A stretch of 64,000 nt of DNA, from IMG/VR virus record IMGVR_UViG_3300048018_000259; one strand, written 5' to 3'. The translations under genes and the position numbers were made by a program. Position 1 is the stretch's first letter. Each line of letters starts with the position of its first letter. Below, piece after piece: positions 3,562 through 24,650 of the stretch. This DNA comes from an uncultured virus (IMG/VR IMGVR_UViG_3300048018_000259). Lineage: Duplodnaviria; Heunggongvirae; Uroviricota; Caudoviricetes; Crassvirales. The notes beneath the pieces are model-generated. The model did no database searches. It saw only the letters and a program-made list of their open reading frames with translations, and was not told the origin of the DNA.

Positions 3562-3564
3562 GTC

Positions 3565-6500
3565 TTATGCGTAAGTTGAATTAATTGAATGACCAGTTGC
3601 TTGTACTACAATTCTTGGACTGTATCCTTGGGATCCAGATCTTGTTTTAAATGTAAAAGTTATAGTTGTTCCATCTGCAGAAGCTACAACGTCATAAGTA
3701 TTTGATCCTTCGTCTATCATTTTTCTTGGTCTCCAAGTTGTTGAATCGCAATAACAGCTATATGATATTCTTTGATATTTTCCTGTGCCTCCATAACATT
3801 TAAATTCAAATCCTGCAGAAGCACCATTAAATCCAGCTGTTAACCCAGCCACTGCGTATCCTGTTGTATTTAAACTACCAGCTACTTTACTATATGTAAC
3901 TAAACCACCAGCTTCTATACCGCCTGATACAGTTAATTTATAAGTAGGATTAGTTGTACCAATCCCGACGTTGCCGGAAGTATTAATAGTCATTACCGTA
4001 CCTGTTCCATCTGAATCAGATATTTGTAGGTCTCTACTGCTTTGTACATTTGTAAAAACCCAATTTCCAGTATTAGCTTGCAATGTCAGTGTAGAATTAC
4101 CTGTGTCGCCAGTAGCGGTTATATTTGCACCTGTTGTTACATTTCCAGTAAAAGTTGCGTTTTGTGAAGTGTTTATAGTAAGAGCTCTTGCATTTCCAGC
4201 TTTTAATGAAAACGAATGTGCTGTAGATGTACCTAATGACATATCAGTAGTTGCGTCATCATAACTCCAATCACCAGCAACAGCGCCGCCGCTTCTTTGC
4301 GCTTTATATATTATCTTACTATTTCCTGCTGTGTAGTTAGCGGTTGCTGTTACATCACCTGCAAAAGTTGCGTTAGCAACAAATTCTACATCATTATTAG
4401 TTTTAAGTCTAATTTGATGGACATTGTTTGCACCTAAATAAAGTTCATCTCCAACGGCCGCAAATACTAAACCTGCATTTGTTCCTGCAGTATCAATTCT
4501 TATAGATGTACTTGCATTAGGATTTACAGTTAATTGACCCCCAAAAGTCCCTGCTCCTGCAAAAGTTGCGTTTTGTGAAGAGTCTAAAGTTAAAGCAGTT
4601 AACCCGCTAGCGCCTGTTGCAATAACTAAAGCATTGTTTTCTGTACCATATATAATTCCTAAGTCTCCCTGATTTACATTTGACCAAGTAATACCAGGCC
4701 TTGCTGCTCCAGAGCCTTTAACTGTTAAGCCTGTGTAATTAGAAAGACCATCAATTAAAACTGTTCCTGCAAAAGTTGCGCTTGTATTGCTTGTTAGTGT
4801 TAAATTAGCAGTTGATCCATTACCACCTAATAATAATGGATTGTTTTGGTCATTAGTTATACCGCCTCTAAATCGTGCTAAGCCATTTGAGTACATGCCT
4901 TGCGACGCAGAAACATAAAAATAATTTTGTGATACAACAACCTCACCTGTTCCTTGTATATAAAGCTGTTCTGTATTAGCTGCGCTTGTAACGCTAAGAC
5001 TTTTATCAGAAGCAGCGTTTCCAGGACCTGTTATAATGTTTGTTGTAGATGATTGAGAAAATCTAGAATCAGTTAATGTATTTGAGGTACCAGAACCTGA
5101 CCATAGAGGTAATGTTTGCCCTGTGCCAATTCCATCTAATACAGATGAGTTATCTACTTTTTGCCATCCATCTGTTCCTGCTCCTGCTACAACATATATA
5201 GCCCAATCACCAACTTTCCAATCTGTTATCCCCGATAGGCTAGTGCTACCAGCAACTGATACAATCCAAAACTGACCGTTTTCAGGAGAAGCAGAAGGTG
5301 GATTACCTGTGCTAGCGTCCCATGTTCCTTCAAATCGTAAACCTGCAGGTATTAAAGCTATTTTGTTATTTACATAAGCTGTAGTAGCTATTGTTGTATT
5401 GTTTATTGCGTTAGCTTGTGTAGTTGTTATCCAACCATCTATAAGTGTACCACCTGTAGTTGTTGCTGCACCTACGCTAACAATTCCAGTTTCAAGTTTT
5501 TTAGCTGAATCATAATAAAGTTTTACTGCACCATCTACAATAAATTCAGCCATATTTTCAGTAGTACCTTTGTTTATTTGAACACTTGCACCATTGCTTG
5601 TAATAAGTAAATTACCCGCACCATTATCTTTTATATAACTATCACTTCCGTCGTGGTATATTTCAAGATCTTTGCTGTTACCCATAAAAATCTTTGACTT
5701 ATCTGGGAATATTGTAGCTCCTAATGTATCTGTATTATTTGTATTGGTTCCAGAAAGGTAAAAGTAATTTGCTAAATTACCATCTCCACGATCAGCCTGA
5801 AAATATACGTCATTATTATCTACTTGCTGTCTAATGTAAAGACCACCGGTATCATTATCAAGAAAAGCATTACTTCCACTGTGATATATCTCAAGGTCCG
5901 AACCTGTACCTAAGTTTAATTTAAAAGCATCAGGAAATACAACCCCAGCAACACCAGTCATTGTCCCGCCAGCAAGTGGTAAGAAAGGTCCTGTACCTCC
6001 ACCTGATCCATCTACATATGCTTTAGTTACAAAGTTAGCTGCAGCAACCGGTGTTATACCAGATACTAAGCCTGTGAATAATCCTGTACCTACTACGTGT
6101 AGTTTAGCTGTAGGTGCATTAGTTCCTATCCCAACGTTGCCAGTAACTCCTTGAACCACAAATCTAGTGTTAGTATCTTGTACTAATTTTAACAAAGAAC
6201 CACTTGCGTTAACATCATAAAGTTCTAAATAATCAGTAGGGGTTGTTCCAGCGCTTCCAAAGACAATTTTGCCTTGATTTGGTATTCTAATGTTACCTGC
6301 TACTTCTAGTTTTTGGTCAGGACTAGTCGTGCCAATCCCAACGTTGCCAGTATTAGCAAGATGTAAAGCTAAATTTCCCTGCGCTGTAAAACCAGTTGTA
6401 GTTACTGCTCTATTAGTATAAAAAGACATACCGTTAGTTACAGTGCTTGTAGTACCTATTATTGCTTTATTATCTCCTACTGCAAAAGTTAACTTTTGTT

Positions 6501-7437
6501 CATCTGCTTGTGCACCTGTTGAGGTTTCTATAATAGCTAAACAAGGGACGTCTTGTTGAACAACTTGTACAGTATCAAAGTTTACAAAGGTAGCGTCATT
6601 ACCTGATCTAAATTTAGCTACTTTTCCATTTCCAGATGTATAACCTTTACTTACGTCTAGTCTAAAATCTGGAGATGTTTCCCCAATCCCGACGTTGCCG
6701 CCTTTTAAGGTCATTGTGTCTGTGTAAGAACCATCTGTGAACAACAGCGAATCATTAGAAGCGTCGTGTTGTATTTTAGCTTTTACGCTATCTGCTTCTT
6801 CAAAAAATATGGTAGCATCCGCGTTTGCGGCATTTGCATTTATATATAAATTGGTATTACCAGCATTGGTTATTTTTATATGCCCTCCTGATACTTCAAG
6901 TTTTTCAGCAGGACTAGTCGTACCGATACCAACGTTGCCGCCTTGCTCTATAACAAAAGGATTAGAAAAATCAGTTGGTTTCCACACTCTAAAAACATAA
7001 CTTGAATCTGCACCTATAGCTCCTGAACCTATGTTATTGCTAGATCTACCAAAAAATATTTGAGCACTTGCCCCTCCAGATCTAAACTCTGCGCCGTAAG
7101 TTTGGAGTTTATTAGCTATAGCAACACCTTGCCCAAATTCTTCAGTAACATAAGCATCACCGCTTACTTGAAGTTTTGAACTAGGACTAGTCGCACCGAT
7201 ACCTACGTTGCCTGCGTCTGTCAAAGTCATTTTAACTCCAGTGCCATACGAAGTATTTTCACCTATATAAAGTTTTGCTGAATCAGTAGCAAAAAACCAT
7301 TTAGAATCTGATGCACCGCCTCTAGTTAATTGTAATAACTCTTGTTGCCCTGATATTGTTAGTTTTGAACTAAGGCTATCTGTTCCAATACCTACCTTAC
7401 CGGCGAAATATCCGTTATTTAAAAATTTTAATGCCAT
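3565..7437 (-). CDS. Long tail fibre protein (1290 aa)
   Basis: Gly/Thr/Asn-rich; repeated GNVGIGTTSP, DLEIYHxG and NATFAG motifs typical of phage fibres. Confidence 0.85.
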   Translation of the reverse strand: MALKFLNNGYFAGKVGIGTDSLSSKLTISGQQELLQLTRGGASDSKWFFATDSAKLYIGENTSYGTGVKMTLTDAGNVGIGATSPSSKLQVSGDAYVTEEFGQGVAIANKLQTYGAEFRSGGASAQIFFGRSSNNIGSGAIGADSSYVFRVWKPTDFSNPFVIEQGGNVGIGTTSPAEKLEVSGGHIKITNAGNTNLYINANAANADATIFFEEADSVKAKIQHDASNDSLLFTDGSYTDTMTLKGGNVGIGETSPDFRLDVSKGYTSGNGKVAKFRSGNDATFVNFDTVQVVQQDVPCLAIIETSTGAQADEQKLTFAVGDNKAIIGTTSTVTNGMSFYTNRAVTTTGFTAQGNLALHLANTGNVGIGTTSPDQKLEVAGNIRIPNQGKIVFGSAGTTPTDYLELYDVNASGSLLKLVQDTNTRFVVQGVTGNVGIGTNAPTAKLHVVGTGLFTGLVSGITPVAAANFVTKAYVDGSGGGTGPFLPLAGGTMTGVAGVVFPDAFKLNLGTGSDLEIYHSGSNAFLDNDTGGLYIRQQVDNNDVYFQADRGDGNLANYFYLSGTNTNNTDTLGATIFPDKSKIFMGNSKDLEIYHDGSDSYIKDNGAGNLLITSNGASVQINKGTTENMAEFIVDGAVKLYYDSAKKLETGIVSVGAATTTGGTLIDGWITTTQANAINNTTIATTAYVNNKIALIPAGLRFEGTWDASTGNPPSASPENGQFWIVSVAGSTSLSGITDWKVGDWAIYVVAGAGTDGWQKVDNSSVLDGIGTGQTLPLWSGSGTSNTLTDSRFSQSSTTNIITGPGNAASDKSLSVTSAANTEQLYIQGTGEVVVSQNYFYVSASQGMYSNGLARFRGGITNDQNNPLLLGGNGSTANLTLTSNTSATFAGTVLIDGLSNYTGLTVKGSGAARPGITWSNVNQGDLGIIYGTENNALVIATGASGLTALTLDSSQNATFAGAGTFGGQLTVNPNASTSIRIDTAGTNAGLVFAAVGDELYLGANNVHQIRLKTNNDVEFVANATFAGDVTATANYTAGNSKIIYKAQRSGGAVAGDWSYDDATTDMSLGTSTAHSFSLKAGNARALTINTSQNATFTGNVTTGANITATGDTGNSTLTLQANTGNWVFTNVQSSRDLQISDSDGTGTVMTINTSGNVGIGTTNPTYKLTVSGGIEAGGLVTYSKVAGSLNTTGYAVAGLTAGFNGASAGFEFKCYGGTGKYQRISYSCYCDSTTWRPRKMIDEGSNTYDVVASADGTTITFTFKTRSGSQGYSPRIVVQATGHSINSTYA

Positions 7438-10470: not shown

Positions 10471-10515
10471 GTGACGTTAGCCTACTATTATTATAACTTA
10501 AGTACCTAGTGTCAC
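10471..10515. repeat. Inverted repeat around an AT-rich core (candidate origin/operator)
   Basis: GTGACGTTAG-N25-CTAGTGTCAC; related copy at 15548-15591. Confidence 0.55.
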
Positions 10516-10694: not shown

Positions 10695-10736
10695 TTACAA
10701 ACGTAATACGATATCGAGCGGATAATATATACGTAA
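10695..10736 (+). promoter_or_regulatory. Putative early promoter, class 1 copy 1
   Basis: TTACAA-N5-ATACGA-N7-CGGATAAT-N5-CGTAA upstream of ATG 10752. Confidence 0.75.
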
Positions 10737-10751
10737 TCAATAATTAATCAC

Positions 10752-10949
10752 ATGACACTACAAGAACTAACTACATTCGACAGAGTATTTCAGAACTATC
10801 TAAACGATAACGACCACGATGAGGAAGCTAGAGACTTGTACATTGAGACGATGGAAGCTCACACTACTCATCTCGAAGTATGGAACGATATCTTTGACTT
10901 CCCAACACTGAAGGACTACGACGAACCGGTTCCTCCTTGTATGAGATGA
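10752..10949 (+). CDS. Early hypothetical acidic protein (65 aa)
   Basis: ORF directly after the class 1 motif. Confidence 0.65.
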   Translation: MTLQELTTFDRVFQNYLNDNDHDEEARDLYIETMEAHTTHLEVWNDIFDFPTLKDYDEPVPPCMR

Positions 10950-11154
10950 CGTAATGTCGTATGTCATACTGTCACTGACACATTGTCATGACACAACACA
11001 TTAACTATAAATTAAACTAATAAACAATTATACACCTATAAACAAAAACTATTATGAGAAAATTCACACACACATTACTATTAAAATTTACACAACTAAA
11101 AACATTTATTAAGAATATTGAAATCGAAGGAATAAGTGAAACAACTTGGAGATA

Positions 11155-11196
11155 GTACAAACAAAATACGACTAACCACGGATAATAATAATATAA
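11155..11196 (+). promoter_or_regulatory. Putative early promoter, class 1 copy 2
   Basis: GTACAA-N5-ATACGA-N7-CGGATAAT-N5-TATAA. Confidence 0.75.
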
Positions 11197-11206
11197 ATAA
11201 ATAACT

Positions 11207-11341
11207 ATGCAATACATACTAACTTGTCAAAACGGTAAACAAATCGATATGTCTCACTACATATTACTTCAACTCGAAGGCGAGATAACTAGAAGCGACG
11301 TACTACAAAGAATAGAATACTATAAGTCTACTAATCTTTAA
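11207..11341 (+). CDS. Early hypothetical protein (44 aa)
   Basis: MQYILTCQNGKQIDMSHY...; AATAACT-ATG start context. Confidence 0.6.
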   Translation: MQYILTCQNGKQIDMSHYILLQLEGEITRSDVLQRIEYYKSTNL

Positions 11342-11391
11342 CAACCAATGGTGACTATCCGAACCAGATTGATACACAAACTGGATAGACA

Positions 11392-11432
11392 AGACATAAT
11401 GGTTGATGTGAGTTCGATTCTCACGATGTCTA
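11392..11432 (+). ncRNA. tRNA minihelix-like element (acceptor stem plus T arm only)
   Basis: AGACAT/ATGTCT stem, perfect T arm GTGAG-TTCGATT-CTCAC, ends A-CTA like the other two RNAs. Confidence 0.55.
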
Positions 11433-11448
11433 CTAAACTTTAATAACT

Positions 11449-11649
11449 ATGACTGAAAAATTCACAGACTATCCAGCTGAGCAAATAAAAGCTAAGCTAA
11501 AACAAATTGACGAGTTCGAAGCTAAGTACGGTCCTAAAGCTACAAGTAAATCTTGGCGCAAATGGTGTACTGACTACAACTACAGAAAACAAGAGTGGCA
11601 ATTTAGACAAAACCTTGCTAAAAGTATGGACTTAAATAAAGTATACTAA
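11449..11649 (+). CDS. Early hypothetical protein (66 aa)
   Basis: ORF with AATAACT-ATG context. Confidence 0.65.
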   Translation: MTEKFTDYPAEQIKAKLKQIDEFEAKYGPKATSKSWRKWCTDYNYRKQEWQFRQNLAKSMDLNKVY

Positions 11650-11810
11650 TGGAAGTAATGATTTTAAATGGTAGAAGATACCTTATCAATACTCAAGTAA
11701 CCGACGGCGGCGACTACCAATGCGAACACTTATTGAAACAATTCCCAGATGATGTTGAAATTGACTGGGACGAAGTAAAGTTATCAGATTTTACAAACAA
11801 GATACGATAA
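11649..11810 (+). CDS. Early hypothetical protein (53 aa)
   Basis: TAATG-coupled ORF MEVMILNGRRY... Confidence 0.55.
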   Translation: MEVMILNGRRYLINTQVTDGGDYQCEHLLKQFPDDVEIDWDEVKLSDFTNKIR

Positions 11811-11832
11811 CAACTGGATAATAACAATGTAA
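11791..11832 (+). promoter_or_regulatory. Putative early promoter, class 1 copy 3
   Basis: TTACAA-N5-ATACGA-N7-TGGATAAT-N5-TGTAA. Confidence 0.75.
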
Positions 11833-11850
11833 CTAATAAATAATAATACT

Positions 11851-12024
11851 ATGCAAAAATTCAAACAACTTAACTCATCAACTATTATCTTAGCCGGTAA
11901 AATATTTAAAGGCTATACAGTTGGCGACTTACCAAAAACATTTGGCTTTATATACAATGAAGACAAAGAACAAGACGGAATCACACAATGGTTCAATTAC
12001 AAAGGCTTAACTTATATTTCTTAA
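11851..12024 (+). CDS. Early hypothetical protein (57 aa)
   Basis: MQKFKQLNSS...; follows the promoter motif. Confidence 0.6.
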   Translation: MQKFKQLNSSTIILAGKIFKGYTVGDLPKTFGFIYNEDKEQDGITQWFNYKGLTYIS

Positions 12025-12025
12025 T

Positions 12026-12232
12026 ATGACTATGAAAGAAGCTTGTAACTATGTAAAACAAGAACAACAAAAACGTGGTCGCGAGCATAGGCGTGCCCAC
12101 TCCCATGAGAAGTGTAGCGGACTGACAGACATTGAGTACAATGCGGTGGTTACACGTCAAAAAAGTACTTTTGCTAAGGGCAAATCATATGCTTACACTT
12201 CAAGATGGCGAGCATTTACTGAAACACTTTAA
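12026..12232 (+). CDS. Early hypothetical basic protein (68 aa)
   Basis: ORF track; tight packing. Confidence 0.6.
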   Translation: MTMKEACNYVKQEQQKRGREHRRAHSHEKCSGLTDIEYNAVVTRQKSTFAKGKSYAYTSRWRAFTETL

Positions 12233-12241
12233 ATTATAACT

Positions 12242-12421
12242 ATGAGTAAAATGAAACAACTAGACGAAATTGCACAAGGTATTGCAGACGTCACAAAAGA
12301 ACTAATGTACGATTCAATTGACTGGCAACTGTCAGACTATAATCTAGATGGCGATGAATACAACCATATTCATTCCCAAGTAATGAAACTTGCGATTGAA
12401 AAAATGTATTTACAAATGTAA
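12242..12421 (+). CDS. Early hypothetical protein (59 aa)
   Basis: MSKMKQLDEIAQGIAD...; ATAACT-ATG context. Confidence 0.6.
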   Translation: MSKMKQLDEIAQGIADVTKELMYDSIDWQLSDYNLDGDEYNHIHSQVMKLAIEKMYLQM

Positions 12422-12451
12422 TACGAACGCAATCGGATAATATAAATGTAA
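12410..12451 (+). promoter_or_regulatory. Putative early promoter, class 1 copy 4
   Basis: TTACAA-N5-ATACGA-N7-CGGATAAT-N5-TGTAA. Confidence 0.75.
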
Positions 12452-12470
12452 CTAATAAAATAAATAAACT

Positions 12471-12659
12471 ATGTATTGTAAATGCGGAAAAAAAGTACAT
12501 CCTGTACGAATTGAACTAGGCTATAAAACTTGTATGCCATGTAGCACAACCCAAACCTATTCATATGTTCCAATCATTGAACATAAAACCGGAAATACAA
12601 TACAAATCGTCAGCCAAGAAGTCAGTGCATCTGTTCACCGTGCTTGGAGACGCAAGTAG
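12471..12659 (+). CDS. C4 zinc-finger protein, DksA/TraR-finger-like (62 aa)
   Basis: CKCG...HPVRIELG...CMPC. Confidence 0.6.
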   Translation: MYCKCGKKVHPVRIELGYKTCMPCSTTQTYSYVPIIEHKTGNTIQIVSQEVSASVHRAWRRK

Positions 12660-12741
12660 CTAGACGAGTAACTTAATTAGGTAAGAAATAGGAAACAACA
12701 GTTACACTAACTTACACATAAGTGAATTGCTAGCTACTAAC

Positions 12742-12819
12742 GGGGGTGACCTGGTATTGACGCGATAGAAAGCCTATATGGAACTATTGCGGAAGACAGT
12801 TCGATTCTGTCCACCTCCA
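12742..12819 (+). ncRNA. Minimal tmRNA-like RNA (tRNA-like domain only)
   Basis: Acceptor GGGGGTG/CACCTCC with G3:U70 and discriminator A; stemless D loop ending TTGAC; helix GCGATAG/CTATTGC; T arm GACAG-TTCGATT-CTGTC. Confidence 0.8.
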
Positions 12820-12834
12820 CTAAAAAATAATAAT

Positions 12835-13092
12835 ATGAATAAAAATTACAACGGCTGGACAAACTATGCCACTTGGCGAGTAAACTTAGAAATACTTGGC
12901 GACATTGAATTTGAAGAACAAGTTTCTGCAGATTATTTAAAAGATTTAACTGAAGAATGCGTTTTTGAAGGCGGAGCAACTCAAAGAATAGCTGATGACT
13001 ACGCACAAGCTTTCCTTTCTGATGTTAATTACTACGAAATTGCTAACCATATCAACGACGATATTAAATTACAAGCAGAATACGACAACTAA
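12835..13092 (+). CDS. Early hypothetical protein, YNGWTNYATW family (85 aa)
   Basis: Start moved to 12835 because the longer ORF overlaps the RNA gene; N-terminal motif common in phage early proteins. Confidence 0.7.
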   Translation: MNKNYNGWTNYATWRVNLEILGDIEFEEQVSADYLKDLTEECVFEGGATQRIADDYAQAFLSDVNYYEIANHINDDIKLQAEYDN

Positions 13093-13110
13093 CGGATAAT
13101 ATTAATGTAA
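13069..13110 (+). promoter_or_regulatory. Putative early promoter, class 1 copy 5
   Basis: TTACAA-N5-ATACGA-N7-CGGATAAT-N5-TGTAA. Confidence 0.75.
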
Positions 13111-13123
13111 CAAATAAAAAACT

Positions 13124-13333
13124 ATGAAAAAAACACTTTACGAAAGAATGAAACCAGAATTTAAACTAAGTGTAGCTAAAAGCTACGAAGGCAGACCACA
13201 CTCTCATGCGGCATTAATTAAAATGCTAAGCGAAACTAGCTATTTCACAGCCGTACCTTACGGCGATGCCTTTGACATTATGAATACATGCGAAATCGAC
13301 TTCCTTGGCGACGCATTTAAAACCTGGGATTAA
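13124..13333 (+). CDS. Early hypothetical protein (69 aa)
   Basis: ORF after the promoter motif. Confidence 0.65.
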   Translation: MKKTLYERMKPEFKLSVAKSYEGRPHSHAALIKMLSETSYFTAVPYGDAFDIMNTCEIDFLGDAFKTWD

Positions 13334-13557
13334 TGGTAATGTGTGAATGGACACTTGCAGATGTTAAGAACAGAGCAAGCAACAAGGCTTTTGCTAAAGT
13401 TACAATGCTAAAACTAGACATTGATGACTACAAGCGAAGCTTAATTGACGGAACTTATGGCGGAATCACTTACGAAGAAGCCGAACAAGTACTTGAAGGC
13501 TACAAAACAGAGCTAAAAGTATGGAATTATATAACAGAATTAATCGAAAAACAATAA
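13333..13557 (+). CDS. Early hypothetical protein (74 aa)
   Basis: TAATG-coupled ORF. Confidence 0.6.
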   Translation: MVMCEWTLADVKNRASNKAFAKVTMLKLDIDDYKRSLIDGTYGGITYEEAEQVLEGYKTELKVWNYITELIEKQ

Positions 13558-13559
13558 TA

Positions 13560-14009
13560 ATGAGTAAAAAACTAATAACAGATGAACTTATCGAACAAAA
13601 AATGATAAGCTATGGCTTCGGCGAAACAGATTCTCACGACGAAGAGTATGTAAGAAAACTAATATTGGAGCATTATGATGCTGAACTAACAGATCAGTGG
13701 CAACAAAATTGCGACTATTACATTTATGAAGAATCTACAGCCGATGGCTACAGTGTATTTGTGGCTTGCTACGACACTAGGTCTATATGTGTTAATGAAG
13801 ATATACACTATTACGATAGCGAACTAAGCGACAGACTGCAAGATGCCATTAAAGACGGCGGCGAAATATATGTTGACGACTATCATCAAGATTTTATTGA
13901 TGACGCTATACAAGAATTATATATTATGCTTGCTGAAAGATTTCACGAACAAGCAATTGACGAGCTTGAAGACGAAGGTTACAAGCAAAATACGGTTGAA
14001 GCCGGATAA
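13560..14009 (+). CDS. Highly acidic early protein (149 aa)
   Basis: Likely start MSKKLITD at 13560; very D/E-rich. Confidence 0.7.
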   Translation: MSKKLITDELIEQKMISYGFGETDSHDEEYVRKLILEHYDAELTDQWQQNCDYYIYEESTADGYSVFVACYDTRSICVNEDIHYYDSELSDRLQDAIKDGGEIYVDDYHQDFIDDAIQELYIMLAERFHEQAIDELEDEGYKQNTVEAG

Positions 14010-14020
14010 TATATATGTAA
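13979..14020 (+). promoter_or_regulatory. Putative early promoter, class 1 copy 6
   Basis: TTACAA-N5-ATACGG-N7-CGGATAAT-N5-TGTAA, ending 3 nt before the tRNA. Confidence 0.75.
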
Positions 14021-14023
14021 AAC

Positions 14024-14096
14024 AGCGCTGTAGAGCAGTGGCCAGCTCGTTGGGCTCATAATCCAAAGGTCGTCGGTTCGAATCCGGCCAGCGCAA
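14024..14096 (+). tRNA. tRNA-Met(CAT), initiator type
   Basis: Cloverleaf; anticodon loop CTCATAA; unpaired 1:72; GGG in the anticodon stem; T arm GTCGG-TTCGAAT-CCGGC; CCA not encoded. Confidence 0.9.
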
Positions 14097-14117
14097 CTAA
14101 CTTTAAATTTAATAACT

Positions 14118-14348
14118 ATGAACAGATTAATTTTACCAATGCAATCCGTAGAAGTAAACTCAACTGCAATTGACACTGCAGAATATGAGTACGACAGCTA
14201 CAGACTGCGACTAACCTTTAAGAATGGCGATGCTTATGATTACACGAAAGTTCCAAACTTTGTATTCGAAGGCTTAAGAACATCTCAATCTAAAGGTAAA
14301 TTCATCAACAAACACGTTTTGTCAACTTACAAATTTAAAAAAGCGTAA
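14118..14348 (+). CDS. KTSC domain protein
   Basis: VNSTAI...Y....L.LTFKNG..Y.Y..VP..VF..L....SKGKFIN pattern. Confidence 0.85.
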   Translation: MNRLILPMQSVEVNSTAIDTAEYEYDSYRLRLTFKNGDAYDYTKVPNFVFEGLRTSQSKGKFINKHVLSTYKFKKA

Positions 14349-14627
14349 ATGACTGAAAGTGAGATGAATAAGCTAGCTGATTTGGTGGTTAGTAAAATTA
14401 TTAACCGCCAAAAAGCTTACGACGAAGAGTTCAAAGCTGAAATACAGGGTATGGTTGACGACAACGAAAACTTAGAATTCGGTACAATAACTGAAGATGA
14501 GATTATCGCTGACGAACTAATCAAACTTAAAAACAGGCTTGACCAACTCGAAGAAAACGAAGACTACGAAGCAGCAAGAATAGTTGCTAACAAAATTAAA
14601 CACTTAAAAAACAAATACAATTTATGA
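14349..14627 (+). CDS. Protein with C-terminal UVR (UvrB/C)-like coiled coil
   Basis: LDQLEENEDYEAARIVANKI. Confidence 0.6.
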   Translation: MTESEMNKLADLVVSKIINRQKAYDEEFKAEIQGMVDDNENLEFGTITEDEIIADELIKLKNRLDQLEENEDYEAARIVANKIKHLKNKYNL

Positions 14628-15454
14628 TTAAACCAATGCTAGCACAAAAAGTTAATACAAAACCTATTGACTGGACTAAAAAAGTCTTTGTGCAACCTAA
14701 GCTTGACGGTGTACGCTGTATCTTTACTAAAGATGGCGCTTACTCACGTACAGGCAAACAATTCAAAAATGTTGATCACTTACAAAATGATTTACAGAAT
14801 TTCTTTACAAAGTTTCCTGAAATTGTTCTCGACGGCGAGCTTTACAATCACGATTTAAAGCACGATTTCGAAAAGATTATATCATTAGTCAGAAAACAAA
14901 AACCGACTGAACAGGATCGCTCTGAAGCATCTGATTTAGTACAGTTTCACGTTTACGACGTTATTACTGAACCTAATTTTACTTATGAATTCAGATACAA
15001 TATGCTTAGATTACAATTGCCTATTGTAACGTCTATGACACTTGTTAAAAACACACTTGTTGAAAGTTATGATGAAGCTGAAATGCTACACAAAGTACAT
15101 CTAGCCCAAGGCTACGAAGGCTCTATCTTGCGTCTTAACGAACCTTACGAGCAAAAACGTTCTTACAACTTACAAAAGTTTAAAGATTTTAGCGACACCG
15201 AAGCTACCATTGTTGGCTATGAAGCTGGCAAAGGCAAGTTTGAAGGTCTTATCGGCAAATTCTTAATGCAAGATGATGACGGTAACAAATTCGGTTGCCC
15301 TATCGGTAAAGGCTATGATTTTGCAGCTAGAAAAAATATACTAAATAACATTCACGATTACATGGGTAAACGTGCTACATTTACTTACTTTCAACGTACA
15401 AATGCTGGCAGCTACAGACACCCATTGTTTAAAACAATTAGAAACTATGAGTAA
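14624..15454 (+). CDS. ATP-dependent DNA ligase
   Basis: Motifs QPKLDGVR, LDGELY, GYEGSILR, KFKDF and C-terminal OB fold (YRHP). Confidence 0.93.
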   Translation: MIKPMLAQKVNTKPIDWTKKVFVQPKLDGVRCIFTKDGAYSRTGKQFKNVDHLQNDLQNFFTKFPEIVLDGELYNHDLKHDFEKIISLVRKQKPTEQDRSEASDLVQFHVYDVITEPNFTYEFRYNMLRLQLPIVTSMTLVKNTLVESYDEAEMLHKVHLAQGYEGSILRLNEPYEQKRSYNLQKFKDFSDTEATIVGYEAGKGKFEGLIGKFLMQDDDGNKFGCPIGKGYDFAARKNILNNIHDYMGKRATFTYFQRTNAGSYRHPLFKTIRNYE

Positions 15455-15547
15455 ACTAATATGGAAATTATATAATGATAACATGATAAGTGAAGAGGTT
15501 GTACATCAACTTCTTGACTGTCATTATAACAGGATTAATAACAAATA

Positions 15548-15591
15548 GCGACACTAGCTATTATAATATAATAATAACAAGCTTATGTCAC
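15548..15591. repeat. Inverted repeat around an AT-rich core, overlapping the start codon at 15585
   Basis: GCGACACTAG-N24-CTTATGTCAC. Confidence 0.55.
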
Positions 15592-16205
15592 ACACCAGAA
15601 ACCTTGATTATCTAGTCAAGAGACGTATTATTTATCGTAGGTCGCCCCTAAACGATCAGCCAACTGAGGTTTTTGATTGGGGTGATTACTACGAAAATGG
15701 TACACACGAATGCTACGAATTGTTTCGAAGTAAAGCTAAAATAACAACGTTTAAGTCACTTAAATGGCACATGTATGTGTTATGGTACTTAAATCCACAG
15801 ATGGACCCAGACGAGTTCGAAAGCTTAGCTAAGTATATATGTAATAAGCGAACAGGTTTTATTACATTTACACCTAGTAATGCTGTGGTTAACTCTATAA
15901 TCTATGATGTTAGCATGATGGATTTAGAAAAGCCACCACCAAACAAGTTGCGTAAAATTATATTTAAAGAGTTCAGCGGTTTAACAACTGAAGAAAAATT
16001 TAAAATAGTTGGCACTATGGTTGGCCGATCAAAGTCTGTTACAGAATCTGACATATACCAATGTATGTTAGAATTGCATGACGAAAACAGACCAATAACT
16101 ATTATGGGTCTATCTAGGATATTAGGTTGTTCTCCGCGTACTATACACAGAAACATGAGTATGGAACTTAAAAAAGAAAAAGAACTTTTAAACAAAGAGA
16201 TATGA
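15585..16205 (+). CDS. DNA-binding protein with C-terminal HTH (candidate replication initiator or regulator)
   Basis: ITIMGLSRILGCSPRTIHRN HTH. Confidence 0.6.
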   Translation: MSHTRNLDYLVKRRIIYRRSPLNDQPTEVFDWGDYYENGTHECYELFRSKAKITTFKSLKWHMYVLWYLNPQMDPDEFESLAKYICNKRTGFITFTPSNAVVNSIIYDVSMMDLEKPPPNKLRKIIFKEFSGLTTEEKFKIVGTMVGRSKSVTESDIYQCMLELHDENRPITIMGLSRILGCSPRTIHRNMSMELKKEKELLNKEI

Positions 16206-16298
16206 AACTAGACTTTAATGAATGGATGGCAAGTATAAAAAATATATATTATGCCGACAATGAAAAAATGTTAAATGCTTTTGAAAAACTAGAGGAAG

Positions 16299-17054
16299 AT
16301 GAAGAAGTATAATGTATCAAACTACGTAAGGTATAAAGAAGATTTAAAAGCATCTATGCCTGACGACAGTAATTATTCTAGTTACACCAGAGATGAGCTT
16401 ATTATTAAGTTTATGCCACTTGTAGAAAACTTAGCACGGAAGTTCTCTACAACACAGCAAGCCTCTGGTGTATTAAGTATTAACGATTTATTACAAATCG
16501 GTAATGAAGGCTTGATTAGAGCTGTAGATAAGCTTGATTGGGAAATGCTAGAAGACTCTGATGATATTGAAAAGACTTTAAAATCTTTTCTTAGCAAAAG
16601 AATCAAAGGCAACATTAGACGTAGGATTGATATGATGCGCGGCGATATAAGAATACCTGAACATAAACTAAATGAAATACGTAACAATCCTAATGACAAG
16701 AAAATGGTTGCTATGTTTTTTAACAGTGTATTTTTAAGTATTGACGCACAGGTAACAAACGATGACGATGAAAATCTTTTGTACCAAGTGCCTGATAAAT
16801 CAGAACCTTATAACATACAATTAATGAATGTATATTTGAAAGGTTTAATGGAAAAGCATCTATCAGGTAATGAATATGAAGTGTTGAGATTGTCGTACGG
16901 TTTAGACTGTGACAAGCACTCAGCTAAAGAAATTGCAAGCATCTTAAATATACAAGGTGTGAGCTCTTATGTAAGAGTATCGGAGCTTAAAAAGCAAGCG
17001 GTACAAAAACTAATTGATAATGTAGATCAGACGCAAGTACTTGATATATTATAG
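16299..17054 (+). CDS. Sigma70-family RNA polymerase sigma factor
   Basis: Region 2 (LIIKFMPLVENLARKF...DLLQIGNEGLIRAVDK), IRIP, and region 4 (LSGNEYEVLRLSYGL...KEIA...RVSELKKQAVQKL). Confidence 0.92.
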   Translation: MKKYNVSNYVRYKEDLKASMPDDSNYSSYTRDELIIKFMPLVENLARKFSTTQQASGVLSINDLLQIGNEGLIRAVDKLDWEMLEDSDDIEKTLKSFLSKRIKGNIRRRIDMMRGDIRIPEHKLNEIRNNPNDKKMVAMFFNSVFLSIDAQVTNDDDENLLYQVPDKSEPYNIQLMNVYLKGLMEKHLSGNEYEVLRLSYGLDCDKHSAKEIASILNIQGVSSYVRVSELKKQAVQKLIDNVDQTQVLDIL

Positions 17055-17062
17055 ATTAGACA

Positions 17063-17091
17063 GTAAATCAATAACTAAATATGTAATTATA
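17063..17091 (+). promoter_or_regulatory. Putative middle/late promoter (class 2 motif)
   Basis: GTAAAT-N14-GTAATTATA between the sigma gene and ERF. Confidence 0.6.
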
Positions 17092-17096
17092 TTATT

Positions 17097-17621
17097 ATGA
17101 CCATAAACGAAAAGTTAGCAACAATTCAGACAAAGTTTAAATCGAAAAAAAGTAGATTTAACTCCTTCGGCAAGTATAACTTCCGGTCAGCCGAAGACAT
17201 CCTAGAAGCTACAAAACCCTTTCTCTTAGAGTTAGGAGTCTCAGTAACAATCAACGAAACACTAAGCGAAGTTGCAGGATTACCTATAATGGAATCTACA
17301 GCTACAGTAAGTGACGGTGAGCATGCAATAACTGCTACATCAATCGTTGGCGTTGACTTAAATCAAAAGGGTATGAATGTACCTCAACAATTTGGTTCAG
17401 CGTCGTCTTATGCTAAAAAATATGCGTTAGGCAATTTGTTCTTAATTGATGACACAGCAGACAGTGATGCAACGAACAACCACGGAAGAGGCAATACCGC
17501 AAAGCCTAAATTAGAAGGAGCGGCATTAACAAAAGCTAAAGCTTTTATCAAATCAGGTGGCACAGTGGACGCTATTAAAAAGAAATATGACGTTCCGGCT
17601 GGTGTATTAAATACTTTATAA
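17097..17621 (+). CDS. ERF-family single-strand annealing protein
   Basis: YNFRSAEDIL...QQFGSASSYAKKYALGNLFLID...DSD. Confidence 0.9.
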   Translation: MTINEKLATIQTKFKSKKSRFNSFGKYNFRSAEDILEATKPFLLELGVSVTINETLSEVAGLPIMESTATVSDGEHAITATSIVGVDLNQKGMNVPQQFGSASSYAKKYALGNLFLIDDTADSDATNNHGRGNTAKPKLEGAALTKAKAFIKSGGTVDAIKKKYDVPAGVLNTL

Positions 17622-18352
17622 TGAAAAGAAAAGAAGAGTTAAATAAGTTGAAAAGCGATGAGCATTACTACGGTAAGTTTGGAAAGCAGTTTCTAAGCAA
17701 CTCAGACATTTCAACGTTATTAACAAATCCTTTAGCGCTTGGCAAACCAATGAAGCCTATCCCAGCATTTTTAGTTGGTGGTTACTTTCACACAGCCATT
17801 CTTGAGCCTCACAAACTTAAAAGCTTTAAGATTGTAGAAGCTACAACAAGGAATACAAAAGCGTACAAAGAGATCTCAAATGGAGAGCTATGTTTATTAC
17901 AACACGAAGTAGATCAAACTGAATTGCTTGTAGACAAAATGATGTCAAACAGCATATGCAAAAGTTTAATCCGTGGTGAAAATGTAGAATATGAAGTACC
18001 TGGCATTGCAGAGATATTTGGAAATCAATGGAAAGGTAAAGCTGATATTATAAATCACGATGAGAAATTAATTATTGATTTAAAAACTACAGCTGACATT
18101 TCAAAATTCAAATACTCAGCTTCAAAGTACAATTATAACAGTCAAGCTTACATATATCAAAAGCTGTTTGGTTATGAAATGATCTTTATGGTTATTGATA
18201 AGAACACACATCAAATTGGCATATATGATTGCTCTGATAAGTTTTTATCATTCGGTGAAGACAAAGTACAAGAAGCAAGCGAAGCTTACAATTTATTTTT
18301 TAAGAATCCGGACTTTAAACCGGAAAATCATTTTATTAACAAAACCCTATAA
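17621..18352 (+). CDS. PD-(D/E)XK exonuclease (exonuclease VIII/RecE-like)
   Basis: G.YFHTAILEP, KGKAD, IIDLKTT, YNSQAYIY. Confidence 0.85.
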   Translation: MKRKEELNKLKSDEHYYGKFGKQFLSNSDISTLLTNPLALGKPMKPIPAFLVGGYFHTAILEPHKLKSFKIVEATTRNTKAYKEISNGELCLLQHEVDQTELLVDKMMSNSICKSLIRGENVEYEVPGIAEIFGNQWKGKADIINHDEKLIIDLKTTADISKFKYSASKYNYNSQAYIYQKLFGYEMIFMVIDKNTHQIGIYDCSDKFLSFGEDKVQEASEAYNLFFKNPDFKPENHFINKTL

Positions 18353-18354
18353 TT

Positions 18355-18663
18355 ATGGCAAGTATTATTAAAGCAAGTATTAACTTGAATGAAATCCCTA
18401 AAGATAAAATCTATGTGGGTAAGAAAGGAAAGTATCTTCCTATCACTATTACAATTAACGATGAGGTTGATGCTTACGGACAGCAAGGTCCAGTTGTTGT
18501 AGAACAAACAAAAGAAGAGCGAGAGGCTAAAGTACCAAAAGTTTATTTGGGAAATGTCAAAATCGTATGGACAAACGGTGATAATGTAGCAGCTGCACCG
18601 AGAGAGGGTCAACCTCAACAAGCAGCAGTTGCACAACCCCAAGATGATGATTTACCATTTTAA
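18355..18663 (+). CDS. Single-stranded DNA-binding protein (putative)
   Basis: C-terminal DDDLPF; located between recombination genes and the primase. Confidence 0.7.
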   Translation: MASIIKASINLNEIPKDKIYVGKKGKYLPITITINDEVDAYGQQGPVVVEQTKEEREAKVPKVYLGNVKIVWTNGDNVAAAPREGQPQQAAVAQPQDDDLPF

Positions 18664-18676
18664 TTAAATTAAATTA

Positions 18677-20386
18677 ATGCAGACAACAGAGATCAATGGA
18701 TTCTTGATTGATGAGTTCAATCAATATAAGCTTGAAGAAGGTAAAAAGCAAGGGACTTGTCCTTTGTGTTCTTCTGATAGACAACCCAAGAAGCAAAAGT
18801 TAAAATGCGCTTCATACGATTGGGAACGTGGTCTCGGTACTTGTCACAATTGTAATACATCATTTCAACTGCATACGTATCAACGTAAAGGTGCTAGTGA
18901 AAAGGTATATGTAAGACCTGAGGAGATCAAACATAATCCTCCAGCTAGCAAAGTAGTTGAATGGTTTAAGACTAGGGGAATATCTCAGAAGACTCTTGCT
19001 GAACTTAAAATCAGTGAGGGTCCTGAGTATATGCCACAGACCGGTAAAACCGAGAACGTTATAAAGTTTAACTATTTTATGGGCGATCAACTTATTAATG
19101 TTAAGTATCGCGATGGAAGAAAGAACTTTAAATTATATAAGGGTGCTGAAAAAGTATTCTATAATATAAACAGTATAATAGGTTATGAGTATTGTGTTAT
19201 AGTTGAAGGCGAAATGGACGTGTTAGCGTTACACGAAGCTGGCATAACGAATGCAATATCAGTGCCAAACGGCGCTACTTTAAATAGCAATAACCTTGAA
19301 TACTTAGATGCTTGTATAGACTATTTTGAAGACAAAGAAAAGATTATACTAGCTGTTGATTCAGACGAAGCAGGACAAGCATTGCAGTCAGAGCTTATTC
19401 GTAGGCTAGGATCTGAGGTGTGTTACTTAGCATCGTTTGATGATTGTAAAGATGCAAATGAATACTTACAAAAACATGGAAAAGACAAACTATCAGAGCG
19501 TATTTCAGGGGCAAGACCAGTACCACTGGAGAATGTTACAACGTTCAGGGATATTGAAGACGAAGTTACGGACTTTGTGCGTAATGGTTTCAAACCTGGA
19601 TTTCAAGTTGGCTTACAAAACTTTGACGATATATTTTCAACTTACACTGGTCAATTCATTACTGTCACTGGTATTCCATCTTCCGGTAAAAGTGATTTTG
19701 TCGACCAAATGGTTGTTGGCTATAACCAAAACTATGGCTGGAAAACGGCGTTTGCTTCACCAGAAAATGTACCAACATATTTACATGCGCATAAGTTGAT
19801 GCGTAAAACTTGGCAAGGTATGCCAACAAGAGATGATATTGGTACTGATCGCTGGAATCAAGTAGCTGATCATTGCAATACTAATTACTTTCATATTGAT
19901 ATGGAACGTTACACTCTTGAATCAGTGCTCAGGAAAGGCGCAGAGCTTGTTAAGCGTAAAGGAATTAAATGTTTAGTTATAGATCCGTATAACAAGGTTA
20001 GAGACGTTGATTGTAAAACAGAAGACGTTAACCGTTATACAATGGAATACTTAACTAAGATTGAAATCTTTGCTAAGAAATATGATGTACTAGTATTTAT
20101 AGTAGCTCACCCTACTAAGATGTATAAAACACAAGACGGTAAAATTGAAGAGCCATCAATGTATAACATTAAAGGCGGCGGTGAATGGTATGATGCTAGT
20201 TATCATGGCTTACTGGTTCACAGAGATTATGAAGCTAAGACCGTTAAAGCTAAGGTCCTTAAAGTTAAGTTTCAAAACCTTGGCGAAAATGGCGCTGAAG
20301 CTCATTTTAAATGGGAACCAAAGTCAGGTTGCTTTATACCACACGAAGAAGTTAATGTGTCGGGTGAAAAAATGCCGTGGGAATAA
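18677..20386 (+). CDS. T7 gp4/Twinkle-like DNA primase-helicase
   Basis: Zn finger CPLC...CHNC; TOPRIM EGEMD...DSDEAG; Walker A GIPSSGKS; IDPYN; VAHP. Confidence 0.93.
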   Translation: MQTTEINGFLIDEFNQYKLEEGKKQGTCPLCSSDRQPKKQKLKCASYDWERGLGTCHNCNTSFQLHTYQRKGASEKVYVRPEEIKHNPPASKVVEWFKTRGISQKTLAELKISEGPEYMPQTGKTENVIKFNYFMGDQLINVKYRDGRKNFKLYKGAEKVFYNINSIIGYEYCVIVEGEMDVLALHEAGITNAISVPNGATLNSNNLEYLDACIDYFEDKEKIILAVDSDEAGQALQSELIRRLGSEVCYLASFDDCKDANEYLQKHGKDKLSERISGARPVPLENVTTFRDIEDEVTDFVRNGFKPGFQVGLQNFDDIFSTYTGQFITVTGIPSSGKSDFVDQMVVGYNQNYGWKTAFASPENVPTYLHAHKLMRKTWQGMPTRDDIGTDRWNQVADHCNTNYFHIDMERYTLESVLRKGAELVKRKGIKCLVIDPYNKVRDVDCKTEDVNRYTMEYLTKIEIFAKKYDVLVFIVAHPTKMYKTQDGKIEEPSMYNIKGGGEWYDASYHGLLVHRDYEAKTVKAKVLKVKFQNLGENGAEAHFKWEPKSGCFIPHEEVNVSGEKMPWE

Positions 20387-20647
20387 ATGGGTAGCGGATT
20401 TAAGGCTAAGAAAGGCCAGGTAAATATGGGTACAACAACAATGGACCCTAAGCTGTGGGAAGCATATAGATGGTGTGTTAGAAATAACATAGCTATATCT
20501 CCTAAAGCTAAATCGCCAACCGCTTGGTATGTAGATATTAAAAACAAAGGTAAAACACATACAAGCCCTGAAACGTATGGCAAAACAGAAATATGGGAAA
20601 AAATATTTGAATATTGTAAATTTTATTATGACAAACATAGAAGATGA
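20387..20647 (+). CDS. Hypothetical protein (86 aa)
   Basis: Packed between the helicase and thyA. Confidence 0.65.
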   Translation: MGSGFKAKKGQVNMGTTTMDPKLWEAYRWCVRNNIAISPKAKSPTAWYVDIKNKGKTHTSPETYGKTEIWEKIFEYCKFYYDKHRR

Positions 20648-21467
20648 ATATAAAAAGCTTATGGAAACAATCCTTTTCGAAGGCCTGGATAAAGCAGATC
20701 GAACAGGCACAGGGACAACCTCTATCTTCGGAGCAACGATTAGACATGATATGTCAATGGGATTCCCTATGCTTACAAGAAAGCGAGTTAGTTTCAAAGC
20801 TGCAAAAACAGAGTTGCTATGGATCTTACAAGGCAGAACAGACCTAAAATACTTAGAGGATAACGGTGTTAAGTATTGGCGGCCAGATTACGAACGATCA
20901 GATAGAACAGATGAAACACTAGGTCCTGTATATGGCAAGCAATGGCGTGATTTCGGAGGTGTAGATCAGCTTTGGCAACTTGTGCACAATATTAAGTGTA
21001 ATCCAAATTCTAGGCGCTTAATGGTTAGTGCATGGAATCCAGCTGAAATGAAGGATATGGTTTTACCACCGTGTCATTACGGCTTTCAAGTTTATATAAA
21101 CAACGGTAAGCTAGACCTTATGTGGCAACAAAGATCAGCAGATGTTTTTCTTGGCCTACCGTACGATATTGCAATGTATGGCTTATTACTCGAGTTATTA
21201 GCTAAAGGCTCTAATATGAAGCCTGGGCAGCTAATAGGGCAGCTTGGTGATTGTCACTTATATAACAATCATTTAGAACAGTCTTTAATATACTTGGACA
21301 GGCCACAGAGAGCATTGCCTGAATTATATATACATGAAGGTATCTATATGTACTCTGAATTGGGTAAACTAGAAAACAAAGTTTTCATACCAGAGTTGAA
21401 TCAAATTAAATTAATAAACTACAATCCTTATCCTGCGATTAAAGCAGAATTAAGTGTTGGCAAATAA
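20628..21467 (+). CDS. thyA: Thymidylate synthase
   Basis: DRTGTGT, LGPVYGKQWR, NSRR, LPPCH, QRSADVFLGLPYD, HLYNNH; likely start MTNIED. Confidence 0.95.
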   Translation: MTNIEDEYKKLMETILFEGLDKADRTGTGTTSIFGATIRHDMSMGFPMLTRKRVSFKAAKTELLWILQGRTDLKYLEDNGVKYWRPDYERSDRTDETLGPVYGKQWRDFGGVDQLWQLVHNIKCNPNSRRLMVSAWNPAEMKDMVLPPCHYGFQVYINNGKLDLMWQQRSADVFLGLPYDIAMYGLLLELLAKGSNMKPGQLIGQLGDCHLYNNHLEQSLIYLDRPQRALPELYIHEGIYMYSELGKLENKVFIPELNQIKLINYNPYPAIKAELSVGK

Positions 21468-21476
21468 ACTAAAATT

Positions 21477-22247
21477 ATGTATTATTTATACCACATACCT
21501 GGTAAAAAGATCGGCGTTACACGTGATCTTAATACACGGGTTACCCTTATACAAGGTTATAAGGAGAATGAGTATGAAGTTCTTGAACAGTCAGACGATA
21601 TAGATTATATATCAGACCGTGAAATAGAGCTTCAAAAGTCTTATGGCTACAAAGTTGATAGGACAAAATATAATAAGTTAAATAAAAAATCTAATCAAAT
21701 GAAAATTAACGCTACAGAGCAGACTAGTACATTTCCTTGTCCGTTAAATAAGCTTAAAGGCCGTTTAATGGACAATATAGGCTTAAGCTGGGAAACATCT
21801 CACGGTGATTTTGAAATTAAAGCTGAATATGTTAACTGGATAGAAGCCAATGCTAAAAGCTCTATGTATAATGACAAACGATGCTACATATACAATAAAG
21901 CTTTTTATGAAGCGTTCTTTAATCCTAAAGATAATGTTTCTTGGAATCAAAACGAAAGATTTGAGCTTATAAGAAAATGGGCAACCGAAAGAGGCATATA
22001 TACTAAAGGTAATTCGCATACACAATATGTTAAACTTATGGAAGAAGCCGGCGAACTTGCTCAAGCATTGCTTAAGAAAGATGCATATGAAGTTAAAGAT
22101 GCTATAGGCGATATGGTTGTAGTTCTTACAAACTTAGCAGCGCTTGAAGGTATGCAAATTGAAAACTGTATTGATGCAGCTTACGGCGAAATAGCAAATC
22201 GTAAAGGTAAAATGATTAATGGAACATTTGTAAAACAAACGCTATGA
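21477..22247 (+). CDS. MazG-like NTP pyrophosphohydrolase with N-terminal GIY-YIG-like extension
   Basis: C-terminal KLMEEAGEL...DAIGD; N-terminal YLY..KIGVT.DL..R...E. Confidence 0.75.
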   Translation: MYYLYHIPGKKIGVTRDLNTRVTLIQGYKENEYEVLEQSDDIDYISDREIELQKSYGYKVDRTKYNKLNKKSNQMKINATEQTSTFPCPLNKLKGRLMDNIGLSWETSHGDFEIKAEYVNWIEANAKSSMYNDKRCYIYNKAFYEAFFNPKDNVSWNQNERFELIRKWATERGIYTKGNSHTQYVKLMEEAGELAQALLKKDAYEVKDAIGDMVVVLTNLAALEGMQIENCIDAAYGEIANRKGKMINGTFVKQTL

Positions 22248-22480
22248 GTAAACAAGAAATAGAATTTAGAGACCCAGTAGTTAAGCGTGTTGTAAACAAA
22301 TTCGTATCAAGATCTGATGTAGGCTTCGCAAAGTATGGCGTAACACTTGACAAAGATCCATCTGAAATGTTTCAATGGCTTAATCATTTACAAGAAGAAC
22401 TTATGGATGCAGTGCTATATTTGCAAAAAGCTAAAGAAGTTTACACAGAAAACTTACAAGATGAAGAGGCAACCTTATAA
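22244..22480 (+). CDS. Small all-alpha nucleotide pyrophosphatase-like phage protein
   Basis: G..KYG.TL...WLNHLQEELMDAVLY. Confidence 0.55.
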   Translation: MSKQEIEFRDPVVKRVVNKFVSRSDVGFAKYGVTLDKDPSEMFQWLNHLQEELMDAVLYLQKAKEVYTENLQDEEATL

Positions 22481-24647: not shown

Positions 24648-24650
24648 AAT

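Follow-up and report, generated by a model that had tools for sequence, protein, structure and literature searches.

Six copies of a 42-bp motif of identical internal spacing, all on the plus strand, head the rightward early region of a 64,000-nt stretch of DNA from the uncultured virus IMGVR_UViG_3300048018_000259 (IMG/VR; Crassvirales). The whole stretch is called the window below, and positions are counted from its first letter. It is most of a roughly 69-kb uncultured marine podophage genome, the host probably being a member of the Flavobacteriia. The six sites very probably are promoters: they lie on one strand, ahead of genes or a tRNA, and feature a -10-like hexamer and a purine at the expected start. 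The reader moderately favoured from the sequence is host core RNA polymerase guided by a sigma-70-family factor of 251 aa encoded by the phage itself (16299..17054, +), in a feed-forward loop. The initial annotation of this DNA had taken the sites as targets of a phage factor, and a phage-encoded specificity factor is indeed the most likely reader; the placement of that factor in a module of the virion is unsupported.

The motif and its six copies in the window

The pattern TTACAA-N5-ATACGA-N7-CGGATAAT-N5-TGTAA, searched in the window with up to 3 mismatches allowed, has six matches with 0–2 mismatches, starting at 10695, 11155, 11791, 12410, 13069 and 13979. These are exactly the six plus-strand copies recognized at first by inspection; 100 shuffles of the window gave no full-pattern match, and none is expected by chance. 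Spacing inside the motif is the same in all six. The core ATACG-N9-GGATAAT is found in exact form at the six sites only; 11 matches are counted if 2 mismatches are allowed (5.75 expected), and the 5 extra ones are within chance. The motif is the only multi-copy non-coding repeat family of the window. Copies had been reported to end 3–19 nt ahead of a start codon or a tRNA, and measured distances agree: 10–19 nt to the next ATG (15, 10, 18, 19 and 13 nt for copies 1 to 5), and 3 nt to a tRNA-Met for copy 6. The reported overlap of four copies with upstream genes was also found, as copies 3 to 6 cover the 3' ends of open reading frames (ORFs) ending at 11810, 12421, 13092 and 14009, respectively.

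All copies include the hexamer GATAAT, which provides A at -11 and T at -7. Start positions, predicted from the start-site geometry of related sites described below, fall on the G of TGTAA, leaving leaders of 14–23 nt, or 7 nt ahead of tRNA-Met. In copy 1 (10695..10736) the hexamer is at 10721–10726, the predicted start at 10733 and the ATG at 10752. The corresponding positions are 11181–11186, 11193 and 11207 in copy 2 (11155..11196), and 11817–11822, 11829 and 11851 in copy 3 (11791..11832), the latter overlapping the end of the ORF 11649–11810. Copy 4 (12410..12451) has the hexamer at 12436–12441, a predicted start at 12448 and the ATG at 12471; in copy 5 (13069..13110) they are found at 13095–13100, 13107 and 13124. 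Copy 6 (13979..14020; hexamer 14005–14010, predicted start 14017) would drive tRNA-Met (CAT; 14024..14097, +).

No stable fold was found at the six copies (DNA minimum free energy 0 to -3.5 kcal/mol, z -1.6 to +1.0), and none forms a hairpin of the N4 type, which has a 5–7 bp stem and a 3-nt loop. The termini TTACA and TGTAA had been described as an inverted pair. The pair is present in this genome, but is not kept in relatives, the exact TGTAA being found in 9 of 60 related copies.

Two RNA-like elements reside in the predicted transcription units. Unit 4 includes a mini transfer-messenger RNA (tmRNA) of 81 nt (12742–12822, +), which scores 61.9 bits with the Rfam tmRNA model (gathering score 47). 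Both ends of the model are matched, and 11 nt replace the 304-nt mRNA-like middle, leaving the tRNA-like domain only. Unit 2 includes a tRNA-fragment-like element at about 11350–11432 (+), with the T-arm-like GTGAGTTCGATTCTCAC and a 3' tail resembling that of the mini-tmRNA (repeat family D19). The element was called by neither ARAGORN nor Rfam, and its fold has a z-score of -0.1. Residues 11326–11427 are skipped in one contig from an RNA library of a related strain. The four RNA libraries consist of short assembled contigs of related strains, and have therefore no bearing on transcription starts, ends or strand.

Conservation and anatomy of the sites in related phages

Related sites were collected from about 60 contigs of related uncultured phages. 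An exact scan of IMG/VR for ATACGA-N7-CGGATAAT identified at least 129 loci, and 60 of the 131 exact core matches listed carry 8 or more of the 11 bases of the upstream block TTACAAACTAA. Comparison of related genomes, named in the initial annotation as one way to check the motif, shows it to be clade-wide and clustered. Five whole records (56–67 kb) contain 5–9 clustered copies each, against 0–1 in a reversed control; the dominant strand carries 38 of these copies, the opposite strand 2, and GATAAT is intact in all 40, despite the 2 mismatches allowed. A second set was made by 30 loci fetched via the sigma protein, in which sites were anchored on GATAAT and sorted into lineage classes by clustering of the upstream sequence. 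Sixty class-A cores lie on the sigma strand in these loci, none on the opposite one. When the window is counted, 25 of 31 sigma-selected sources hold 3–10 sites; the other 6 have less than 4.8 kb of sequence upstream of sigma.

The block upstream of the hexamer is constant in register and uniform within a genome, and its sequence is lineage-specific. Lineage A, which includes the window, features TTACAAAC..AATACGA. The corresponding blocks are TTACAAACAAAATAMW in lineage B, CACGGACTTA in lineage D, TCTTACAGT..AACACGA in lineage E, GTTGCAGA..AATACGT in lineage F, TCGAAWT.TAATACGA in lineage G, and ATATAAGTTTGACACGA in lineage H. A conserved block thus occupies the -35 place (16–18 bp upstream) in every lineage, with a sequence differing from one lineage to another. 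A (G/A)AC core located 18 nt before the hexamer is common to classes A, B, D and F, and to a second type of element (class II) described below.

Downstream of the hexamer, position 7 is a purine in 112 of 116 unique sites (G in 62, A in 50). At position 6, T is found in 75 sites, A in 30 and C in 11. Counts of the spacing between the hexamer and the first ATG of an ORF of at least 30 codons peak sharply at 6 nt (9 sites, representing 4 N-terminal types), with a lesser peak at 8 nt (3 sites) and a broad hump at 12–30 nt; no site has a distance of 1, 3, 4, 5, 7 or 9–11 nt. An ATG at distance 6 follows 3 of 257 GATAAT hexamers outside the clusters and 19 of 1235 HATAAT hexamers (1.2–1.5%). Leaderless mRNAs starting 7 nt after the -10 hexamer would give such a peak. 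No paper on this motif, or on the phage sigma, was found in literature searches.

Candidate readers of the sites

The phage sigma factor has regions 2 and 4, and region 2.4 is FliA-like. Its gene belongs to the early/replication arm, follows the last motif copy at a distance of 2.3 kb, and encodes the only sigma-like protein of the window. The protein matches Sigma70_r2 (E 3.5e-5), Sigma70_r4 (E 8e-4) and phrog_351. The score with the superfamily model TIGR02937 is 49.6 bits (cut-off 42.9), as for a genuine sigma; the score with the FliA/WhiG subfamily model TIGR02479, 40.2 bits, falls short of the cut-off of 189.6. The best relative of solved structure, found with a profile of 25 homologues, is FliA (1rp3, E 2e-8), and the printed alignment shows the stretch RIKGAI of region 2.4 in both proteins.

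Of 28 contigs of at least 50 kb selected by the motif, 24 encode the sigma (5/5 and 19/23), as do 19 of the 20 which are at least 90% complete. In the 4 sigma-less contigs the motif is found in the first 4.8 kb or so (1–4845), on the minus strand, and points off the contig end. Conversely, two relatives without sigma were examined, MW202828.1 and elemoA_7-9A; neither has the motif, and no multi-copy motif at all was found in the early arm of the latter. A tblastn search of 50,697 phage records with the sigma gave no match. In two loci (L164 and L165) one motif copy is found 8 nt before the ATG of the sigma gene itself.

In the mechanism proposed, six sigma-70-type promoters would launch the rightward early arm, each made by a GATAAT -10 element, a start about 7 nt downstream, and the lineage-specific upstream block with its (G/A)AC core. 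No terminator-like site was found on the plus strand from 10695 to 17762, so that any first transcript would make sigma, and sigma would then fire all six promoters, as a feed-forward loop.

Several points weigh against this mechanism. The promoters proposed for sigma lie upstream of its gene, and the protein hence would be absent at time zero unless packaged, or unless another enzyme acts first; no host-type promoter which could fire the first transcript was found in the window. The helix YVRVSELKKQ of region 4.2 is nearly invariant across lineages whose upstream blocks (TTACAAAC, CACGGACTT, TCGAAWT, ATATAAGTTT) differ sharply, and the (G/A)AC core is missing in classes E, G and H. Covariation with the sigma-like segment had been suggested at the outset as a check: the motif does co-occur with the sigma gene, but the upstream block does not covary with sigma4. 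All motif carriers belong to one clade, so that co-occurrence is confounded by common descent. The spacer contains the ATACGA block, and a neighbouring 206-aa helix-turn-helix protein is excluded as its reader. As to geometry, the invariance of GATAAT in the sigma-fetched loci is partly built in by the anchoring, unbiased support coming from the search of the five whole records, and an ATG is found at distance 0 (3 sites) or 2 (1 site) from the hexamer, upstream of the predicted start, in one gene family (MTxxE...).

Reading of the six sites by host holoenzyme, with sigma-A or another host sigma, is rather unlikely. The phage sigma would then serve a later gene class, and the uniformity of the sites would derive from cassette duplication; T4-type phages, in which strong early promoters recur as cassettes, would be the model. 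The presence of A-11 and T-7 of the host box agrees with this reading. This would reproduce the classical phage order, host sigma first and phage sigma later, with no need of a bootstrap, and an upstream block which varies with no change of sigma4 is expected if the block is not read base by base. The sequence of the sites does not favour it. The sigma-A box of Flavobacterium psychrophilum is TAnnTTTG at -12 to -5, the other sigmas of the species are one sigma-54 and seven of the extracytoplasmic function (ECF) type, and the median 5' untranslated region measures 24 nt (available text of PMC9723704). None of the six copies fits the Flavobacteriia sigma-A promoter (this box, with TTG near -33): A-11 and T-7 only are present, and T-12, T-8, T-6 and G-5 are lacking in all six, which bears out the mismatch to the Bacteroidota housekeeping consensus seen at first.

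Host-type promoters are also not evident elsewhere in the window. Strict TTTG-N17-21-TAnnTTTG matches number 5 (3.8 expected), relaxed TTG-N17-21-TAnnTTTG matches 11 (8.3 expected, standard deviation 2.8), and none of either is located ahead of a gene; 2 of the 11 relaxed matches are on the coding strand, both within long ORFs. In contrast, a real flavobacterial phage used as positive control, Cellulophaga phage phi14:2, shows clear TTG...TAnnTTTG sites before 6 of the 10 genes read (g070, g075, g108, g110, g092, g093). According to the available text of a preprint (10.1101/2020.03.07.982082), middle promoters of phi14:2 are read by the host polymerase, and the early transcripts dependent on gp66 have no common upstream motif; the middle promoters, in which two blocks resemble -35 and -10, were also transcribed in vitro by Escherichia coli sigma-70 holoenzyme, so that cross-reading of promoters of this sort is feasible. 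Reading by host holoenzyme is further disfavoured by the absence of the motif from the two sigma-less relatives. Moreover, the leftward arm shows no distinct late-promoter motif which the phage sigma might serve, the search having given no more than a weak excess of ATATGTAA (13 matches, 6.3 expected).

Something must start transcription, and no host-type promoter is sensibly placed. By elimination, a factor delivered with the virion at time zero may be considered, in analogy with N4 and crAss-like phages: either packaged sigma, or an unrecognized polymerase domain in the ejection-type protein of 2839 aa (28169–36688, -). The order of the genes in the structural module (GroEL, terminase, portal, capsid, ..., giant gene last) is like that of the crAss-like phage phi14:2, and the last giant gene of crAss-like phages encodes the virion polymerase. 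A 506-aa protein (38556–40076, -) matches the C-terminal domain of the crassvirus muzzle, crAss_MUZ_C, at 27 bits, exactly the cut-off, and a T7 gp14-like protein (E 1.9e-4, below cut-off) precedes the giant gene. A starter of this sort is nonetheless quite unlikely. The 46 ORFs of the virion arm gave no match to sigma or RNA polymerase families in Pfam, PHROG, NCBIfam and PDB searches, the catalytic motif [DN][FYW]DxD is found in no ORF stretch longer than 150 aa, and a sigma profile aligns to the 2839-aa protein with a hhalign probability of 0.16%. PF00940 was not matched in 5 relatives, but the control likewise gave no match. Neither a family nor a PDB sequence matches the giant protein, and an Atlas search returned unnamed clusters only. 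A stretch resembling T7 motif B (RGDWK...YYG, spotted by eye), for which the protein was considered as a polymerase, is not conserved in the giant protein of MW202828.1 (3859 aa, itself with no family match). The sites, which form no hairpin, have the geometry of a sigma-70-family holoenzyme. The sigma-like module of the virion indicated as reader in the initial annotation is thus not borne out, the only sigma-like protein in the window being the product of an ordinary early-arm gene, outside of the virion genes.

That the sites are no promoters at all, but operators of a phage regulator, RNA-processing sites, or recombination cassettes shuffling small early genes, is highly improbable: conservation does exceed the usual needs of a sigma, notably at ATACGA in the spacer, the gene beside sigma encodes a helix-turn-helix protein, and the TTACA/TGTAA pair is there in this genome, but the strict strand bias, the fixed distance to gene starts, the purine and leaderless-ATG peak 7 nt after GATAAT, the lack of a stable fold, the lack of conservation of the inverted pair, and the persistence of the motif in a lineage (G) missing the helix-turn-helix protein all speak for promoters.

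A more radical view, in which the clade would run its whole transcription programme without host sigma-A, and the FliA-like sigma would read every promoter once set in motion by a sigma or other starter carried in the virion, is improbable. In a variant of it, the palindromic class II element may be the true time-zero promoter, read by an unrecognized ejected enzyme. The delivery of a starter from the virion, whatever its nature, has a slim chance; to our knowledge, there is no description of such a 'virion sigma' strategy. Two further resemblances were set aside. The likeness of AATACGA to T7 promoters was dropped as no single-subunit polymerase was found, and in a reading of the ECF type (AAC...CGT) the spacing, judged from the sequence, is far too short.

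Neighbouring elements, known systems and significance

The phage-only 206-aa protein (15585..16205, +) is usually encoded just before sigma and has a C-terminal helix-turn-helix. Its two clades roughly track presence and absence of the ACGA block (locus L146 is an exception). The protein is missing in all 3 records of lineage G, one of them 97% complete, in which both motif and block are kept, and this rules it out as a required reader of the upstream block. The predicted fold has a pLDDT of 87; in the VIA wide search residues 151–206 only resemble a generic helix-turn-helix (Z 5–6.6), and a Foldseek search of PDB gave nothing with E <0.7. Prediction of a complex of sigma and the 206-aa protein (score 0.01, mark 0.32) is uninformative either way.

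The class II element (GCGACA...AT-rich...AGCTTATGTCAC; 15548..15591, +) is located directly before the operon encoding the 206-aa protein and sigma. A second copy (10471..10515, -) heads the leftward (tail-fibre/late) arm. Elements of the form GTGACAnnAGCC...AT-rich...AGGCTAATGTCAC precede the operon in 21 loci, and six more head the leftward or rightward arm, the second window copy among them (the others are L139:866, L141:332, L147:1394(-), L152:1278(-) and L154:2599(-)). In the 27 sequences, which conform to GTGACA..AGCC..AT-rich..GGCTAATGTCAC, the residues GAC, AG, TA and CT.A.G are invariant. TGACA lies 17–18 nt before a hexamer (A/T)A(A/T)A(A/G)T. The ends of the element are an inverted repeat; RNAalifold pairs 4 inner positions only, 2 of them with compensatory changes (-0.63 kcal/mol), and covariation is weak. 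The element may serve the sigma operon as promoter, and is a candidate time-zero site.

Perfect palindromes mark the sigma-less MW202828.1 (L001 43733–49891), in which GTGTCGTTAACGACAC is repeated 11 times. Most copies lie about 20 nt before early-gene starts, two are inside annotated genes, and the hairpin style is reminiscent of N4 early promoters.

The same sigma protein is encoded by a contig of 68,870 bp, which implies that about 5 kb of the genome lie beyond the window. The large terminase (52472–54685, -) matches 87 phage records; save for one uncultured virus, the hosts are Flavobacterium, Cellulophaga, Tenacibaculum or Maribacter, and the best match is to the uncultured MW202828.1 (63%). 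Shine-Dalgarno sequences are absent at start codons of the window, as typical of Bacteroidetes (available text of PMC6847099). The leftward arm, with tail fibres, runs from about 10418 to 1. The rightward arm (10695–26369) encodes small ORFs, tRNA-Met, ligase, the 206-aa protein, sigma, Erf, exonuclease, primase-helicase, ThyA, MazG and RNR. A second leftward block (64000 to 28169) encodes GroEL/ES, terminase, portal, structural proteins, the T7 gp14-like protein and the giant protein. In the last, HExxH (HELLH) and HAD-like DxDxT (FDFDDT) motifs can be spotted by eye, and a DNA 3'-phosphatase model of NCBIfam is weakly matched (E 0.04). Other repeats include 13 copies of a 45-nt sequence inside two tail-fibre genes (1–7437, -), which correspond to repeated protein modules (family D1), and five ACACTA units in a row (59020–59086, minus reading) in the intergenic space before the ORF 58639–59019. 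Near-identical DNA was found in 14 metagenome or virome runs from 10 studies, one possibly being the source of the window, and more than 8000 homologues of the sigma were retrieved.

Among known promoters, those of sigma-28 (FliA, group 3) have TCTAAAG at -35 and GCCGATAA at -15 to -8 (available text of PMC12784957). The phage CGGATAAT features G-A-T-A-A at -12 to -8 in the same register, with a C/G-rich dinucleotide in front. The two differ in that the GC of GCCGATAA is replaced by CG or TG in phage sites, the phage -35 block ACAAACT agrees with TCTAAAG at 3 of 7 positions in an alignment of our own, the phage spacer has the extra ATACGA, and the presumed hosts are without FliA (no sigmas other than sigma-A, sigma-54 and those of the ECF type are present in F. 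psychrophilum, as far as the available text of PMC9723704 goes).

Phage sigmas such as SPO1 gp28 and gp33/34, phiEco32 gp36 and T4 gp55 likewise have a consensus of their own repeated through a gene block. In phiEco32 and T4, the host sigma serves the early genes, and gp36 and gp55, the phage sigmas, come into play later. In SPO1, too, host sigma reads the early genes and phage sigma comes later (available text of PMC13401047). In contrast to these three phages, promoters of the phage type here head the earliest genes and precede the sigma gene, and host-type promoters were not seen.

The early promoters of the N4 virion polymerase are hairpins. As with N4 and with gp66 of phi14:2, early genes here would be read independently of host sigma, and a giant ejection-type protein ends the structural module; in contrast to N4 the six sites do not fold, and in contrast to both systems no signature of a polymerase came to light. 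In T4, early promoters conform to the host consensus, and in middle promoters a MotA box near -30 replaces the normal -35. As in T4, small early ORFs of the phage are preceded by extended promoters in many near-identical copies, but these sites are off the host consensus, no relative of MotA or AsiA was identified, and one lineage does without the neighbouring helix-turn-helix protein.

A phage sigma with cognate promoters is known from other systems; what is unusual here is that such promoters head the earliest genes and that host-type promoters are not present. The housekeeping sigma of Flavobacteriia is itself unusual, and flavobacterial phages already known, for example phi14:2, transcribe their host-dependent genes from host-type promoters. 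On the reading moderately favoured here, a very abundant clade of uncultured marine phages would deploy a FliA-like sigma of its own, and a matching set of promoters, at the very start of infection. This poses a bootstrap problem which can be tested, namely what makes the first transcript. The sigma and its sites may offer an orthogonal sigma/promoter pair for Bacteroidota, in which genetic tools are scarce, and the lineage-specific upstream blocks a natural series for the study of promoter evolution.

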